Part shown: piece by piece, positions 23,538 through 30,283 of the stretch
How positions within the stretch are numbered: the stretch's first letter is position 1
Layout: each line of letters starts with the position of its first letter
Assembly (NCBI GenBank): GCA_965659025.1
Contig: CBFHTW010000001.1
Coordinates: 1 to 56,442, forward strand
Origin: Minisyncoccia bacterium
GTDB taxonomy: Bacteria; Patescibacteriota; Minisyncoccia; Phycocordibacterales; UBA2100
Reading direction: 5' to 3'
DNA length: 56,442 bases
Notes under the pieces: generated by a model
Databases searched by the model: none
What the model saw: the letters and a program-made list of their open reading frames with translations, nothing else
Told to the model about the DNA's origin: nothing
Position numbers and translations under genes: made by a program

Positions 23538-23568
23538 AAACCCCGCCTATACGGCGGGGTTTCTTTTG
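23538..23568 (+). terminator. Rho-independent terminator of thrS
   Basis: AAACCCCGCC-TATAC-GGCGGGGTTT followed by CTTTTG. Confidence 0.8.
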
Positions 23569-23585
23569 ACTTTCTTTTTTGGAGC

Positions 23586-23640
23586 CCTGCCTACCGGCAG
23601 GCAGGCCTGCCTGCCGACAGGCTTGCCTGCGTATGCAGGC
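23586..23640. repeat. Cluster of GC-rich palindromes (CCTGCCTACCGGCAGGCAGG, CCTGCCTGCCGACAGGC, GCCTGC-GTAT-GCAGGC)
   Basis: Lies between convergent gene ends. The first palindrome is 19/20 identical to one at 15233-15252. Confidence 0.7.
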
Positions 23641-23653
23641 ATGCACCCGTCCG

Positions 23654-25141
23654 TTATCCGCGAGAGATAACAATCTTTGTGCCTTCCATCTGCATGGTGT
23701 CGGCAGTCTGTGAGACCGTCGGCACAAATGCTGGCGCAAAGACTGTACGCTGTGTGATAACAGGCTCCTCACGCTGTTCTTTCTTGACAACGGCCGCCAC
23801 TTCCGAAGAAGCCGCAACTGGTGTTACGAAGAGCGGTGATTGTGCCTTGCGCATGGTGGTGCGGCGCGGGAGTGTCCCGGCGAAACCGCCAAGAGCACCG
23901 GCCACAAGACCAAGAGCCGAAGAGCGAGCGTACACGATAAGGTACGCGGCAGAGGCGGCGAAGGCCGCAAGCAATACCCAGTAGAGTGTGTTGCCCACGA
24001 TGCCGAGATCAAAGCCTGTGTACGGCACCGAAGAGAGCGCCACGTACTGAGAGGCAGAAACCTGAAGCGACACACTGCATGTAGCAGAACCGTTCGGGCC
24101 ATACACGGTGAGCGCGTACACGCGGCTTGCCTCTGGCTCTACCGAGAGCGTGCCGGAAGTCTGTACCGCGCCGATGCCGTCGGAAAGCGTTGCGCTTGTT
24201 GCGCCGTAGCTCGTCCAAGAGAGGGTTGCGTTGTCACCATCGCGGATAGCCGTCGGATTGGCAGAGATACTGCACGAAGGCGTCTGGCTTTGGTAATACG
24301 TCGGCTGATACACCGGGTATGTGTTGTTGTAGTTGTACACATACGGGTACGAGGTCTGGTAGTTGGTGTATGTCGTCGGGTACACCGGGTACGTCTGCGG
24401 GTAGGTGTACTGCACGGTGTACTGCGGCGTCGCGTACGCAAGGTGCGTTACATTGGTGTTGCCGCTATTTACCACATTGGTGTTACAGCTGTTGCCTGTG
24501 CATGTGTTGATGACCGAAGAACCACCACCCGTAGGATACGAAGGGTAGCTTGGGTACGAAGGGTAGCTTGGCGTCGTCGGGCGCGCGATCTGCACAGGCT
24601 GTGCGATCTGCACCGGGCGGGCAATGCTCGCCGTGGAGACGCTGTAGCCGTATGACGGTGTGGACACCGAGATCGGCGTGGAGTAGGAGTAGGTCGTGTC
24701 GTAGCCATACGTGTCGGCGTAGCCATCGTAGAAGGACGAGCATGTGTAGCACGAGCCATCTGCGGCGTAGCCGTCAAAGCCATCGTAGGCGTAACCGTCA
24801 AAGCCAGTGCCAGCATATCCGTCGTAGCCATTGTAGGCGTAGCCGTCAAAGCCCGTGCCAGCATATCCGTCGTAGCCATCGTAGGCGTAGCCGTCAAAGC
24901 CCGTGCCCGCATAACCGTCAAAACCATTGTAGGCGTAGCCATCGTAGCCAGAGTAGCCGTCGTAGCCGGAGTAGCCATCGAAGCCGGAGTATCCGTCAAA
25001 ACCGGAATACCCATCAAAGCCCGAGTAGCCGTCAAAGCCACTGTAGCCGTCAAACTCCTGCGCATACGCAATAGGAGCAACTGCAAGTACAGCTACAACC
25101 ACAAGTGCGAGCACATTTCCTTTCGTAATGAGATTTTTCAT
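23654..25141 (-). CDS. Secreted Tyr/Gly/Asp-rich tandem-repeat surface protein with an Ig-like domain, a VPYTG motif and C-terminal TM segments
   Basis: Start at the ATG at 25141 (MKNLITKG...). Signal peptide LAVAPIAYA-QE. 14 [FY]DGY repeat units, then PVQIA x2 and PSY x4 repeats. A beta-rich domain (CSISANPTAIRDGDNATLSWTS...), then LSSVPYTGFD followed by the hydrophobic stretch LYWVLLAAFAASAAYLIVYA. Confidence 0.8.
   Translation of the reverse strand: MKNLITKGNVLALVVVAVLAVAPIAYAQEFDGYSGFDGYSGFDGYSGFDGYSGFDGYSGYDGYSGYDGYAYNGFDGYAGTGFDGYAYDGYDGYAGTGFDGYAYNGYDGYAGTGFDGYAYDGFDGYAADGSCYTCSSFYDGYADTYGYDTTYSYSTPISVSTPSYGYSVSTASIARPVQIAQPVQIARPTTPSYPSYPSYPSYPTGGGSSVINTCTGNSCNTNVVNSGNTNVTHLAYATPQYTVQYTYPQTYPVYPTTYTNYQTSYPYVYNYNNTYPVYQPTYYQSQTPSCSISANPTAIRDGDNATLSWTSYGATSATLSDGIGAVQTSGTLSVEPEASRVYALTVYGPNGSATCSVSLQVSASQYVALSSVPYTGFDLGIVGNTLYWVLLAAFAASAAYLIVYARSSALGLVAGALGGFAGTLPRRTTMRKAQSPLFVTPVAASSEVAAVVKKEQREEPVITQRTVFAPAFVPTVSQTADTMQMEGTKIVISRG
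24755..25054 (-). repeat. In-frame tandem coding repeats (18-nt units, then 24-nt units)
   Basis: Encodes FDGYSG x5, YDGYSG, then eight 8-aa units ([FY]DGYA[YG][NDT]G). These repeats produce the spurious alternative-frame ORFs in the track. Confidence 0.85.
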
Positions 25142-25265
25142 ACGATGTTTGATAAAAATAGTAAAAACAAACACGACCTGATAACGTTGGTAGTATACCA
25201 ATGAAGAAGCCGCGTGTCAAGTGGTGGTAAAACCACTCAACACGCGGCGTATTTTTTCCGAATCG

Positions 25266-25634
25266 CTACTTTTCGGTGCCGACCCAGCAGCCGAGGCGCT
25301 TCGCGATCGGGTCCATCTTCCAGATACCGGGCTTGCCGGTAGTCTGGCCGGTGCACGCGGCACCTTCAACGGCGCCGGCACCGAAGGCAACGACATCTGC
25401 CACTGCCTTTTGGGCGGGTGCAGAGGTCGGAGCCGGGGCCGGAGCTGAGGTGGACGCAGGCGCCGTGACGGGCGGCGGTGTCATCACCGACTCCACCTTT
25501 GTCTTGGTGGCATCGGCGAAGTCCTTGATCGCCGTCGGATTCGCCTTGTAGGCGTAGTAGCCCACATAGACGAGAACGGCGGCGAGGACGACGGCGATGA
25601 TGCCACCAAAAATGATCTTGAATGCTTGGCCCAT
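25266..25634 (-). CDS. Small membrane-anchored protein, paralog 1 of the two-Cys C-terminal module family
   Basis: AGGAGG SD 6 nt upstream. N-terminal TM (IIFGGIIAVVLAAVLVYVGYYAYK), a Pro/Ala/Thr linker, and the C-terminus GAVEGAACTGQTTGKPGIWKMDPIAKRLGCWVG. Confidence 0.75.
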   Translation of the reverse strand: MGQAFKIIFGGIIAVVLAAVLVYVGYYAYKANPTAIKDFADATKTKVESVMTPPPVTAPASTSAPAPAPTSAPAQKAVADVVAFGAGAVEGAACTGQTTGKPGIWKMDPIAKRLGCWVGTEK

Positions 25635-25664
25635 GATTTCCTCCTGGGTTATGGACTGCCTGTG

Positions 25665-25692
25665 AGTATAACAGATAGAATATAAAAGTCAA
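25665..25692 (-). promoter_or_regulatory. Promoter TTGACT-16-TATACT for paralog 1
   Basis: On the minus strand TTGACT (25687-25692) and TATACT (25665-25670), directly after the upstream terminator hairpin. Confidence 0.6.
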
Positions 25693-25718
25693 GGGGCGCG
25701 GATTTTCATCCGCGCCCC
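25693..25718 (-). terminator. Hairpin GGGGCGCGGAT-GAAA-ATCCGCGCCCC
   Basis: 13 nt downstream of the stop of the 4-TM gene. Followed by TTGACTTTTAT on the minus strand. Confidence 0.65.
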
Positions 25719-25730
25719 AGTAAAAAAGAG

Positions 25731-26189
25731 CTACATCCTCGTTTCGCCACGCTCCTTGCCCGCGAAGGCAATGCGTTGCGAGAAGAGTAAGCCCCAGAGA
25801 AGGTCGCTGAGACTGAACGCAGTACACTGCATCAGAATCAGTTTTTCGTTGGCCCCGAGATCCCGAAACCCCGGGAGCAGTAGCAGGAAGAGTCCCGAGA
25901 ATGACGCGACGAGGGCGAGAAGGTTGTCTATGAACCATTGCCCCATGTCGGTTGACTCGCGAGTGCTCGTCCCCCAGAGCTGGACGTTGAAGTAGATGAG
26001 AAGCGGCAGCCACATGAATTTGGCCAACCACCCCATCCCACCATCGCCGATCACGTATTTGAGCACCGGGAAACCAATTCCCAGCATAAATACGATAAGA
26101 ATGCCGGTGGTCACCCAGCTGACGAGCGAGGCGACATCTTCCACATTCCATTCGGAAGTCTCGCCGAAGTAATCTTTACGCTTTGACAT
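25731..26189 (-). CDS. Hypothetical 4-TM integral membrane protein
   Basis: 152 aa with a GGAGGAGGA SD and four hydrophobic segments. I recognise no family. Confidence 0.7.
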   Translation of the reverse strand: MSKRKDYFGETSEWNVEDVASLVSWVTTGILIVFMLGIGFPVLKYVIGDGGMGWLAKFMWLPLLIYFNVQLWGTSTRESTDMGQWFIDNLLALVASFSGLFLLLLPGFRDLGANEKLILMQCTAFSLSDLLWGLLFSQRIAFAGKERGETRM

Positions 26190-26215
26190 TTCTCATCCTC
26201 CTCCTGAAAGGTTGT

Positions 26216-26243
26216 GGGCGGTGCGCACTAGTGCGCACCGCCC
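26216..26243 (-). terminator. Perfect palindromic hairpin GGGCGGTGCGCAC-TA-GTGCGCACCGCCC
   Basis: 8 nt downstream of the paralog 2 stop. No clear T-tract follows. Confidence 0.5.
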
Positions 26244-26250
26244 GTTGGAA

Positions 26251-26778
26251 TCAGTTGCCGACGAAACAGCCAAGACGGCCGCTCGGGTCAGTCTTCCAGA
26301 CGCCGGGTTTGCCGGTCATCTGGCCGGTGCACGCGGCACCTTCGACGGCGCCGGAGCCATAGACCGAAACCATCGCGACCGATGAGCCACACGTCCCGCA
26401 AGGGGCGCGAGTGACAGGCGGTGCGATAACCGGAGCCGGGCACGGAGCCGGAGCAACACGAACCTGCGCCGGCGGCAGATAGGTAACCTGCGGCACCTGC
26501 CGCACGATCACCCGTTGCGGTACCTCCACCACACGAGGCGGCGGGGTCTGCACGACGACCGGCGCGGACGCCGCGATCGGCGCGCATCCGGGCGCATTGC
26601 ACACGGCCCGAACAGTGCGGTAAATCGGCTTGCGCACCGTGACGGTGCGGTAGCCGATGACGCGCTTCTGTGTCATGCATCCGCCCTGATGGGCGTATGT
26701 CTGACAGCCAGCCTCGGCGGCCGGCGCGAAAGCAAAAATACCAACCGCGGCAAGCGCGGCAACGATCAGATTGCGCAT
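26251..26778 (-). CDS. Secreted Cys/Pro-rich protein, paralog 2 of the two-Cys C-terminal module family
   Basis: ATG at 26778 preceded by AAGGAGG. Signal peptide MRNLIVAALAAVGIFAFAPAAEA-G. A Pro/Val/Gln-rich linker, and the C-terminus GAVEGAACTGQMTGKPGVWKTDPSGRLGCFVGN. Confidence 0.75.
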   Translation of the reverse strand: MRNLIVAALAAVGIFAFAPAAEAGCQTYAHQGGCMTQKRVIGYRTVTVRKPIYRTVRAVCNAPGCAPIAASAPVVVQTPPPRVVEVPQRVIVRQVPQVTYLPPAQVRVAPAPCPAPVIAPPVTRAPCGTCGSSVAMVSVYGSGAVEGAACTGQMTGKPGVWKTDPSGRLGCFVGN

Positions 26779-26888
26779 GGCAACCTCCTTTTTGCGCCGC
26801 CGCGAGGCGGCTTTGTTAAAGATCAGTGGCTTGTGAAAGCCATCTAGGTACAGATTTGCACCCAGAATTACATTCACAAAAAGTTGGA

Positions 26889-26919
26889 GGAAGCGGCCGG
26901 CCATTGCGCGGCCGCTTCC
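26889..26919 (-). terminator. Hairpin GGAAGCGGCCG-(9 nt)-CGGCCGCTTCC followed by a T-tract
   Basis: Just downstream of the paralog 3 stop. On the minus strand it is followed by TCCAACTTTTTG. Confidence 0.65.
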
Positions 26920-26926
26920 AAAAAGA

Positions 26927-27184
26927 TCATGGCCCCACCCAACAACCGAGTTTGCCATTGGGGGCAAGCTTCCAGACGCCGGGCTTTCCGGTGGTCGCAC
27001 CGACGCACGATGCGCCAGCCACTAGGGGACCTTCCTGTGTCTGGAACTTCACCGCAGGCACAATAATGCCCGGCGATGCCGTGGATTGGATTCCCTTGTA
27101 GGTGTAGTAGCCGAGGTTCGCCCCGACCACAACGACAACAAGGATAATAATAATCCACCCCAACGATTCCGCAATTTTTGCCAT
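26927..27184 (-). CDS. Small membrane-anchored protein, paralog 3 of the two-Cys C-terminal module family
   Basis: ATG at 27184 with a GGAGGG SD. TM helix (LGWIIIILVVVVVGANLGYYTYK). C-terminus GPLVAGASCVGATTGKPGVWKLAPNGKLGCWVGP. Confidence 0.75.
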   Translation of the reverse strand: MAKIAESLGWIIIILVVVVVGANLGYYTYKGIQSTASPGIIVPAVKFQTQEGPLVAGASCVGATTGKPGVWKLAPNGKLGCWVGP

Positions 27185-27253
27185 CTGTATACCCTCCGCG
27201 CTCGTTACCCCGAGCAATGGGCCGCACGAAGCGGTATCTTTTTATCCTCCGCC

Positions 27254-28823: not shown

Positions 28824-29468
28824 CTATTGAGCCGAAATGATCTCCGCCTCAACCACCCAGCGGGCGGTTTTTTTGCCAAAGGTGTCGCAAGTGGAAAGCA
28901 CAAGCTTGCCCGCGCCGCCCGAGGCGAGGTCTATCATTTCTTCGCTTGCGTCGGTGTGGCGCACGGATGTGACGCGATACGTGTCAGTGCGACTCGCGCC
29001 AGAGACGACGATGGTGTCGCCCACGCCGAGCTCATTGATACGATTGAACGCCTGGTACATTTTGTTATGCACGATAGGCAGATGCGAGCTGTGCGCAAAA
29101 ACAAACATCGTACCGCCTTCGCCGAGCAGTGCGGAATCAGGATACCGAACAGGCCCCGCAGAGAGCAGCACGTCCAACGCGTCGGCATCTTTGGTGGCTG
29201 GGTTTTGTATGAGCAGATCCAAACCGATCGCGGATGCGGTGATGCGCTCCGGTACCACGCCACGCACGACTATGGACGCCGCCGACTCTTCGCCAAGCTG
29301 GGGAATGGAAGAAAGCGCCACGCGATCATGCGCCGGTGAAGAGCCGTCCACATAGTATGGGACAAACCCCACAGACTCCGCCGCAGAGAGCGACAACACA
29401 AACATGACGACAGTCGTCGCCAGAAAGATGCCCTTGGGCGCTGTGTGTTGTGTGTTGGGCGTATTCAT
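28824..29468 (-). CDS. Sortase family transpeptidase
   Basis: N-terminal TM anchor. Catalytic His region (MFVFAHSSH), the TLxTC-like Cys motif (KLVLSTCD) and a downstream Arg (ARWVVEA). An alternative start is 29486. Confidence 0.8.
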   Translation of the reverse strand: MNTPNTQHTAPKGIFLATTVVMFVLSLSAAESVGFVPYYVDGSSPAHDRVALSSIPQLGEESAASIVVRGVVPERITASAIGLDLLIQNPATKDADALDVLLSAGPVRYPDSALLGEGGTMFVFAHSSHLPIVHNKMYQAFNRINELGVGDTIVVSGASRTDTYRVTSVRHTDASEEMIDLASGGAGKLVLSTCDTFGKKTARWVVEAEIISAQ

Positions 29469-29563
29469 GGTCTTACTATTATACACTATTCTTGCTTGCT
29501 GTCAACTTGACTAAATAGCGCCTTGGCTGTATAGTTTTGCCGTTATAGGATATCACACCTCGT

Positions 29564-30283
29564 ATGCCTACACCGGAAGAAAAGAATAGCTTGCTCTCCG
29601 ATACTATTGCGGCAATTGGTTTTTTTGCCGTCATTACCGTGGCTCTATGGGGCACGGGGAATGTTATTCGTGTTGCTCCTTCTATCTTTAGTGCGCTTGT
29701 CCCCTCTTCTACGACAGTCGCCACAAAAGCGACCACAAGCAATGTGATAGTAAAACCCAACCTCTCGCCCGCGGCATTGGTGACGGCAGAGCGCAGACAA
29801 CAGCAAACCGCTTTGCAAAAGATTGACTTCTCTCGCTACCACGCCACTACCACGCTCGTGCAGAAAAAGGCACCAGCCGTCGCAACGTCAAAAAAGTCCA
29901 CCACTAAGACAGCGGCACCTGTGGGACGCCCGGATCTTTCTGTGTCTATTACCGCGGTTGGTATGATTGATCCGACGACAGGCATATTCATTGAACGAAT
30001 GCCTATGGACAGAGCGGAGATTGGCGCCGTGCGGTTTGTCGTGCGCAATGTAGGCTCCGCCGCTTCAGGCTCATGGCGCTTCAGTGCGTCGCTCCCTGTT
30101 TCCACCGATGAATCTTCATACTCATCCGTATCCCAGCCTTCGCTAAGTCCCGGCGGGTATGTGTCATACACCCTGCGCTTCAACAACACCGTCCCAGGTG
30201 ATGACTTCATCGTGCGCGTGGATCCGGGTGGACACGTAAACGAATCTCGCACCTCCAACAACACCGCTTCGGTGAGGTTTTAA
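29564..30283 (+). CDS. Membrane-anchored CARDB-like (Ig-fold) domain protein
   Basis: N-terminal TM helix and a Thr/Ala/Lys-rich linker. The C-terminal PDLSVSITAV...VRNVGSAASGSWRFSASLP...VDPGGHVNESRTSNN resembles CARDB. Confidence 0.65.
   Translation: MPTPEEKNSLLSDTIAAIGFFAVITVALWGTGNVIRVAPSIFSALVPSSTTVATKATTSNVIVKPNLSPAALVTAERRQQQTALQKIDFSRYHATTTLVQKKAPAVATSKKSTTKTAAPVGRPDLSVSITAVGMIDPTTGIFIERMPMDRAEIGAVRFVVRNVGSAASGSWRFSASLPVSTDESSYSSVSQPSLSPGGYVSYTLRFNNTVPGDDFIVRVDPGGHVNESRTSNNTASVRF

Follow-up and report, generated by a model that had tools for sequence, protein, structure and literature searches.

A conserved PYTG block with a cytoplasmic extension, a candidate sortase signal, in a tyrosine-rich surface protein of a Kaiserbacteria-type lineage

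The PYTG gene and its product

The window, meaning the whole 56,442-nucleotide stretch of Minisyncoccia bacterium contig CBFHTW010000001.1 analysed here, carries on its minus strand a gene for a tyrosine-rich secreted protein, called the PYTG gene below after the Val-Pro-Tyr-Thr-Gly motif that precedes its transmembrane (TM) helix. The motif lies in a strongly conserved block, the gene is linked to the only sortase gene of the assembly and missing together with sortase in relatives, and in one genus the locus is split in two exactly at PYTG. The motif is read here as a sortase sorting signal whose C-terminal remnant probably has a function of its own. In a preliminary description the gene had been read as an open reading frame (ORF) with a signal peptide, LSSVPYTGFD, a TM helix, basic residues and about 90 further residues, and at the protein level this was accurate: the ORF is genuine, it encodes 495 amino acids, and 91 of them follow the helix. 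Its features are as follows.

25192-25220, minus strand: sigma-70-type promoter, TTGACA - 17 nt - TGgTATACT with an extended -10 (sequence reading)
23654-25141, minus strand: the PYTG gene
25061-25141, minus strand: predicted Sec signal peptide, residues 1-27, MKNLITKGNVLALVVVAVLAVAPIAYA followed by QE, with presumed AYA/QE cleavage (basic n-region, hydrophobic core, AxA; AlphaFold helix 3-21)
24947-25054, minus strand: six hexapeptide units [FY]DGYSG, residues 30-65, also readable as 12 Gly-X-Y triplets
24755-24946, minus strand: eight octapeptide units [FY]DGYA(Y/G/A)(N/T/D)G, residues 66-129
24281-24754, minus strand: Tyr/Pro/Thr/Asn/Ser-rich low-complexity stalk, residues 130-287, with PSYPSYPSYPSYP and CTGNSCNTNV (sequence; predicted local distance difference test, pLDDT, 28-44)
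24053-24280, minus strand: predicted Ig/PKD-like beta-sandwich, residues 288-363, with conserved C290 and C355 (pLDDT above 90)
23978-24049, minus strand: 24-residue juxtamembrane block QYVALSSVPYTGFDLGIVGNTLYW, with the VPYTG core at 24014-24028 and a putative cut between T375 and G376
23930-24001, minus strand: TM helix, residues 381-404 (AlphaFold helix, pLDDT about 85-90; R406 and RRTTMRK after it, positive-inside)
23657-23929, minus strand: basic cytoplasmic tail, residues 405-495, isoelectric point (pI) 10.9 (alignments A1, A3 and A4)
23657-23704, minus strand: conserved terminal beta-hairpin D-[ST]-M...G..[PT][RK]IVIxR, residues 480-495 (strands 482-486 and 489-493, pLDDT about 71)
23538-23561, no strand assigned: GC-rich hairpin ACCCCGCC-GTAT-AGGCGGGGTTT (ACCCCGCC..GGCGGGGTTT) between the convergent thrS and PYTG genes (sequence reading)

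The ATG at 25141 is taken as the start codon, since the promoter overlaps the alternative upstream TTG at 25201. Tyrosine amounts to 12.1% of the whole protein and 15.9% of the ectodomain, compared with 2.8% across the long ORFs of the genome, so the high tyrosine content pointed out earlier was borne out; the PSYPSYPSYPSYP stretch and the long Tyr/Pro/Thr tracts are present, and the repeat count was exact, with 14 consecutive units (FDGYSG five times, YDGYSG once, and eight 8-residue [FY]DGY units). The ectodomain is devoid of lysine and has a pI of 4.05, and a stalk block, NTCTGNSCNTNVNN, is common to the homologs in the alignment consensus. The hairpin downstream of the gene is likely to be a terminator shared by the two convergent transcripts. 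Other GC-rich palindromes, of the CCTGCCTACCGACAGGCAGG type, occur within 23538-23640, between the PYTG gene and thrS.

Conservation of the PYTG block

A search with residues 295-495 retrieved 28 proteins, two of which are named Candidatus Kaiserbacteria. All but two of these relatives carry [LS][ST]Q[IV]PYTGFD[LF]G followed by a TM helix, and most of them continue with a tail of 60-100 residues past the helix that ends in KD[ST]M...G..PRIVIxR. The residues beyond the helix, rightly called atypical of LPXTG substrates in the preliminary description, are a conserved feature. With a profile of anchor plus tail, 998 cluster representatives (clusters at 50% identity) were found among 1.84 billion at E up to 0.001, 453 of them reaching 1e-10, and the module is C-terminal in all 150 listed of the 998. 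Among the 147 representatives newly found by this profile, PYTG is present in 147/147 and its surroundings are hardly less constant (L-4 in 146/147, D+5 in 145/147, G+7 in 145/147, Y+14 in 147/147). The block from -8 to +15, PYVSL[ST]QIPYTGFD[FL]GxxGNAxYW, is almost invariant in these proteins, 138/147 of which end in the terminal hairpin motif. P, Y, T and G are likewise invariant in 35 and 39 aligned relatives (alignments A3 and A4), so that the conservation of VPYTG in homologs, which had been put forward as something to check, holds for this core; position 1 of the motif is I or V, not L. The sequences spanning PYTG are LSSVPYTGFDLG and ALSSVPYTGFDLGIV in the target and LSQIPYTGFDFG in the consensus. 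Elsewhere in the genome a second 'PYTG', on contig C27, was dismissed as a chance match, because it lies inside a multi-pass membrane protein.

Related proteins differ in what follows the helix. In genera g2, g8, g9 and g11, proteins encoded in the kind of gene island described below end 33-39 residues past [IV]PYTG, first hydrophobic and then basic in sequence (e.g. ..SNVPYTGASDYIYPAFLLTIVLTAGYVFATQRRRLFAR), and protein P0016 likewise ends in a short PYTG signal of this hydrophobic and basic kind. Because relatives carry PYTG in such textbook signals of motif, TM helix and basic tail, PYTG is very probably a sortase site, and these signals form the strongest argument that sortase reads PYTG. 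At the other extreme, proteins of the sister families f2, f6 and f7 (L056, L057, L060) run on for 300-460 residues past the TM helix. These residues are mostly helical and have an 'LPREDGW' region in common; neither a PDB sequence search nor Pfam gave a match for these long cytoplasmic tails. One sister-family ectodomain (among L056, L057 and L060) consists of Gly/Ser and poly-Pro sequence in place of Ig repeats.

A sortase cassette between gyrB and thrS

Two further genes of the window belong to the same neighbourhood.

28824-29486, minus strand: membrane-anchored sortase (PF04203, E 1e-15, 57.9 bits against a gathering threshold of 26.6)
29564-30283, plus strand: N-terminally anchored CARDB-domain protein, divergent from the sortase (PF07705, E 4.5e-8)

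The sortase gene that had been placed 3.7 kb from the PYTG gene is confirmed by its PF04203 match, and it is the single sortase of the whole assembly (533 kb, 89% complete; 59 bits in the genome search). His132 (FAHSSH), Cys200 (LSTCD) and Arg209 are invariant in 12 island sortases. None of the NCBIfam sortase classes is reached (class E, 32.1 bits against 160; D, 25.7 against 165; C, 19.8 against 160; GN, 22.6 against 158), and a PDB sequence search with the protein gave marginal sortase matches, at E 0.004 or weaker. The one ORF of the genome that combines PxTG with a TM helix is the PYTG gene. Since MraY and three penicillin-binding protein transpeptidases are encoded as well, peptidoglycan would be available as an acceptor.

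The anchor-plus-tail module is present in 135 and a sortase in 136 of the 151 family genomes. Both lie on one contig in 43 genomes, within 10 kb of each other in 40/43 and at a median of 5 kb. The order of the cassette is gyrB, divergent CARDB gene, sortase, variable genes, one to four PYTG proteins and convergent thrS, and it was seen in genera g1, g4, g6, g8, g10 and g11 and in the same-order families f2, f6 and f7; in f2 and f6 the sortase directly adjoins the PYTG protein. The CARDB gene is paired with the sortase in every inspected island long enough to show it. Five same-order genomes, 99-100% complete, have no sortase. Four of them were inspected, and there gyrB still adjoins thrS at a distance of 63 bp to 2.6 kb, an interval that contains neither a CARDB nor a PYTG gene. 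Since the flanks stay when all three genes are missing, the sortase, CARDB and PYTG genes seem to come and go jointly, and the CARDB protein, absent together with the sortase, is probably a third component of the system. The co-occurrence of motif and sortase, proposed earlier as a check, is therefore found both as linkage across the family and its sister families and as joint absence in the four inspected genomes. Counts of presence and absence within the family (127 genomes with both, 7 with neither, 9 with the sortase only, 8 with the module only) are uninformative, because the genes are near-universal and linked and most absences fall in incomplete genomes. Across the class, the long-tail module was rare, at 3/251 sampled genomes, all of the same order, and sortases elsewhere in the order adjoin ordinary FPTTG signals.

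The island sortases of the family carry a conserved S[VI]GFVPYY[VI]DG just past the TM anchor (29340-29370 in the window, residues about 39-48; alignment A7), a sequence absent from the sortases of genus g11 and of the sister families. It resembles the substrate's [IV]PYTGFD and could be a pseudo-substrate or a lid.

The locus is split in genus g8

In genus g8 the orthologous locus, also convergent with thrS, consists of two genes, A and B (L044, G012:C17, 9061-11266; also L039, L040, L041 and L042). The product of gene A has a signal peptide, YSDYSS-type Tyr repeats, an Asn/Thr tract and an Ig domain, and it closes with a short signal of the canonical kind. Between the two genes the sequence shows a terminator hairpin and, 6-12 nt before the ATG, an extended -10 promoter. 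Gene B encodes 222-271 residues: a Met and 9 or 10 residues lead to [LV]PYTGFDxG and the TM helix, and the charged tail that follows is long and ends in KDTLxLDKxGEYPKLLLTRE. PYTG-bearing gene B products from four genomes share 31-44% mutual identity and keep both PYTGFDxG and the terminal motif, and in one genome gene B occurs with no gene A upstream. Judged from these sequences, the target gene is the equivalent of A and B fused exactly at PYTG. Since the GFDxG-TM-tail part is conserved and is separately encoded in g8, it seems to be a functional unit in its own right. The tail itself is evolutionarily labile, being found as a long domain, as a short hairpin tail, as a separate gene or not at all. 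Motif, TM helix and sortase outlast these changes.

Three candidates for stand-alone anchors outside g8 were set aside: a 142-residue frame of G038 is cut by the contig end, P0106, whose contig is broken, extends upstream into an Ig domain, and P0086 lies on a contig too short for a verdict. Cleavage of gene B products by a prepilin peptidase at the G-F bond (class III signal) was rejected as well, given the wrong topology (N-out, C-in), the lack of a basic leader and the absence of Glu5. A fourth candidate set aside is the compact island L061 (GCA_016203585.1, JACQMN010000089.1, 175-1772), where a sortase is followed by a 161-residue secreted protein of Tyr/Gly/Pro repeats with no anchor; 31 nt further on and in another frame lies a 132-residue 'MNSVTLSQIPYTGFDFG..PRIIVTRG', followed by thrS. 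This arrangement may be a second split or a frameshift error.

Predicted structure and family searches

Two AlphaFold predictions were made, one for the last 215 residues with 35 relatives and one for the full-length protein with 12 relatives. Residues 22-282 are disordered in the model (pLDDT 28-44), and residues 288-363 are confidently modelled as a beta-sandwich (pLDDT above 90). At its edges stand two cysteines, C290 and C355, which are invariant in alignments A3 and A5, and the Ig/PKD-like domain is read as disulfide-bracketed by this pair. The linker that contains PYTG is of low confidence, and the tail is disordered up to the terminal hairpin (residues 482-493, pLDDT about 71). In Foldseek the best match of the sandwich was the PKD domain of the archaeal S-layer protein 1l0q (E 3e-4, probability 1.00). 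The likeness is one of fold (root-mean-square deviation 2.7 A over 82 columns of residues 288-363), and the two differ in that identity is 20%, no Pfam match exists and the target domain is bracketed by the conserved cysteine pair. The Ig-like domain expected from the sequence was thus supported by structure prediction, at the level of fold only.

Scans of the target, its neighbours, its homologs, the gene B proteins and the sister-family tails against Pfam and NCBIfam gave only Sortase and CARDB above threshold. The earlier suggestion to look for a known family with a different anchoring mode accordingly turned up none for the target in these two collections.

A sortase signal with a conserved remnant

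VPYTG, the TM helix and the basic residues are interpreted as an LPXTG-type signal of the Kaiserbacteria lineage, read by the sortase of the cassette and leaving a functional remnant, to which a probability of about 0.6 is given. The target has the x-P-x-T-G motif, the TM helix directly after it, then R406 and RRTTMRK, and a co-occurring sortase. After export by Sec the precursor would be held in the membrane by its TM helix, and the single sortase of the cassette would cut PYT/G between T375 and G376. The acidic, lysine-free, Tyr-rich ectodomain would then be transferred to an amine, most likely that of peptidoglycan or lipid II, and GFDLG, the TM helix and the 91-residue tail with its terminal beta-hairpin would remain membrane-bound, a second product with a function of its own. 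In the ectodomain so displayed, a disordered [FY]DGY-repeat region would form the distal part, carried by the low-complexity stalk and by a single Ig/PKD-like domain clamped by a disulfide. From its position, disorder and composition, the Tyr-rich tip probably serves adhesion to a host or matrix, or forms a surface coat.

Several observations weigh against this reading. There are 123 residues from the motif P to the stop, where a sorting signal normally ends the protein, and none of the LPXTG anchor models of Pfam and NCBIfam matched at E up to 0.1. Conservation from -8 to +15 exceeds what a sortase normally needs and would also suit a structural juxtamembrane element, and at S-2, V-1 and in its shortened hairpin the target departs from what the family usually has. 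Some of the linkage reflects gene order common to related genomes, whose counts are not independent events. In a fifth g8 genome, G015 (L042), gene B reads LQNM-GFDYG where the others have LPYT-GFDYG; as it keeps GFDYG with no PYT, PYT is not indispensable to the remnant. Finally, cleavage, the acceptor and the functions of the remnant and of the Tyr-rich tip are inferred, not observed. The sorting-signal part of the preliminary description comes out supported: the motif is invariant in homologs, it is linked to a sortase and missing together with it, no known family with another anchoring mode matched, and relatives have PYTG in textbook signals. The silent anchor models and a protein that does not end at its signal speak against it.

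Alternative readings

The same block has also been considered as part of an uncleaved type I bitopic membrane protein, with PYTGFDLG..YW serving structure or interaction on the outer side of the membrane, where it could for example dock to the sortase, the CARDB protein or the wall, and with the link between ectodomain and cytoplasmic tail left intact. It would account well for the conservation of all 24 residues rather than of the pentapeptide, for the conserved tail and terminal hairpin, for the 300-460 residues past the helix in the sister families, for a stand-alone gene B that has no cargo to sort, and for the G015 gene B that has lost PYT and kept GFDYG. It is nevertheless considered unlikely, since short canonical signals from this family, and even from these islands, contain PYTG too, the gene comes and goes with a sortase whose His/Cys/Arg triad is intact, and that sortase would otherwise have no candidate substrate in the target genome. 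The split locus allows a bolder alternative, namely that the sortase ligates or exchanges ectodomains onto a protein anchor. An exposed NH2-GFDxG of the TM-tail unit would accept PYT-acyl intermediates, and proteins A and B of g8 would be joined post-translationally into the protein that the target gene encodes directly, across a junction, SNVPYTGFDLGPIYN (...SNVPYT-GFDLGPIYN...), that no single g8 gene encodes. Split and fused forms at an orthologous locus, with the junction exactly at PYTG, fit this idea, as do the 9- or 10-residue leader and PYTG kept by cargo-less gene B in four divergent genomes, the near-invariance of GFDxG past the scissile bond and the Met directly before GFDYG in the G015 gene B. 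Sortase reactions are reversible, and a glycine leaving group is a competent nucleophile. In no natural case known to us does the N-terminal glycine of a membrane protein serve as a sortase acceptor. Ligation is judged improbable: it is purely inferential, the G015 promoter sets the start at an upstream Met and not at M-GFDYG, genera g2 and g9 seem, among the matches inspected, to have canonical signals only and hence no such acceptor, and peptidoglycan synthesis is present to supply an ordinary one. If true, it would amount to natural protein-protein ligation by a sortase, with the cell surface tied to a cytoplasmic tail.

A third alternative concerns the repeat tract, which could be a slippage-prone contingency locus or an assembly artefact, its tyrosines serving covalent cross-linking or a collagen-like coat. 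Tandem arrays are indeed present, and Tandem Repeats Finder reports an 18-nt period with 81% matches and a 48-nt period (3.5 copies) with 90% matches. These values contradict the earlier statement that the repeats are near-perfect at the DNA level, and the five protein-identical FDGYSG units show pairwise synonymous differences at 2 to 6 of 18 positions. Because identical units use different codons, the repeats appear to be old and held by selection on the peptide, not the outcome of recent slippage. The units also vary among species (WDNFASDG, FDYGPYGGGD, YSDYSSYSDSG and others), and the ectodomains of the 147 representatives are alike in composition, not in sequence, with medians of 16.5% aromatic, 8.1% acidic and 1.1% basic residues. 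As independent assemblies show the same architecture built from varied aromatic/Asp/Gly units, the tract is no assembly artefact, a concern voiced in the preliminary description, and selection seems to act on composition. The weak matches to Collagen (PF01391, 18.9 bits against a Pfam threshold of 27.2) and SclB (14.6 against 325, NCBIfam) are both below threshold, and they arise because the hexapeptide array can be read as twelve Gly-X-Y triplets. A collagen-like triple helix was rejected on account of this sub-threshold score, the break of the period after only 12 triplets and the predicted disorder. The Pfam and NCBIfam scans revealed no peroxidase or cross-linking enzyme in the island, and this set of explanations for the tract is considered highly improbable.

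Comparison with known systems

A textbook sorting signal has about 30-40 residues from motif to stop and is seen as a disposable C-terminal tag. The target resembles LPXTG proteins sorted by housekeeping sortases (class A SrtA of Firmicutes; class E, with LAXTG, of Actinobacteria) in its Sec signal, ectodomain, x-P-x-T-G motif and some 20 hydrophobic plus basic residues, and the systems share a membrane-anchored sortase with His/Cys/Arg in a peptidoglycan-making organism. It differs by having [IV]PYTG inside a 24-residue conserved block and by the 91 further residues with their conserved terminal hairpin, and its sortase differs from the housekeeping enzymes in reaching no class threshold (best PDB match at E 0.004). 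The class GN 'marine' sortase (TIGR03784) works with its own dedicated target protein, and the cassette is comparable to it in that a single sortase is co-encoded with one or few targets and inherited or lost as a unit; it differs in lineage (here Candidate Phyla Radiation, CPR, or Patescibacteria), motif and target architecture, with 22.6 bits against 158. MSCRAMM-type adhesins and collagen-like Scl proteins similarly combine distal low-complexity repeats, Ig-like domains and a sortase signal. The target departs from them in its species-variable aromatic/Asp/Gly units of kept composition, and it belongs to neither family.

The best precedent for a conserved remnant is the C-terminal peptide left by sortase A in Streptococcus gordonii, which acts as a signal (cited in PMC11502775) and is thus a sortase remnant with a function of its own. 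In that case the remnant is short and hydrophobic, as is ordinary, and a histidine kinase senses it. The PYTG remnant differs from it by carrying a conserved tail of 60-130 residues, and up to 460 in the sister families, and by its ability to exist as a free-standing gene; no kinase partner is evident for it.

In the literature on sortases, LPXTG or PYTG and CPR, Patescibacteria or Kaiserbacteria, no description of a PYTG signal with a conserved cytoplasmic extension was found. Three findings are new here: the division of the locus into A and B, with a separate promoter, the one gene B that has lost PYT, and the empty site between gyrB and thrS in relatives that have no sortase. A cassette with one sortase, the PYTG block and a conserved tail is maintained across an entire lineage of ultra-small bacteria that are probably attached to hosts, which raises the question of whether sortase processing yields two functional products or even joins proteins. 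To our knowledge, the host-contact molecules of Kaiserbacteria-type cells are essentially unknown, and the PYTG protein is the main candidate for their surface protein, in adhesion or as a coat. The 24-residue block would also permit a new sorting-signal model for about a thousand protein clusters that belong to no family.

Other observations

Between the PYTG gene and the sortase, three small paralogs are encoded on the minus strand (25266-27217 in the window), which share a C-terminal two-Cys module, GAVEGAACTGQxTGKPGxWK..LGCWVG; blast gave no matches for them in the inspected islands of other genomes. On contigs C13 and C14 of genome G000, two Ser/Thr-rich proteins that lack PxTG have a 'STQVAA..' stretch in common, after which each closes with a TM helix and a basic tail; they could be plain tail anchors or bearers of a different signal.

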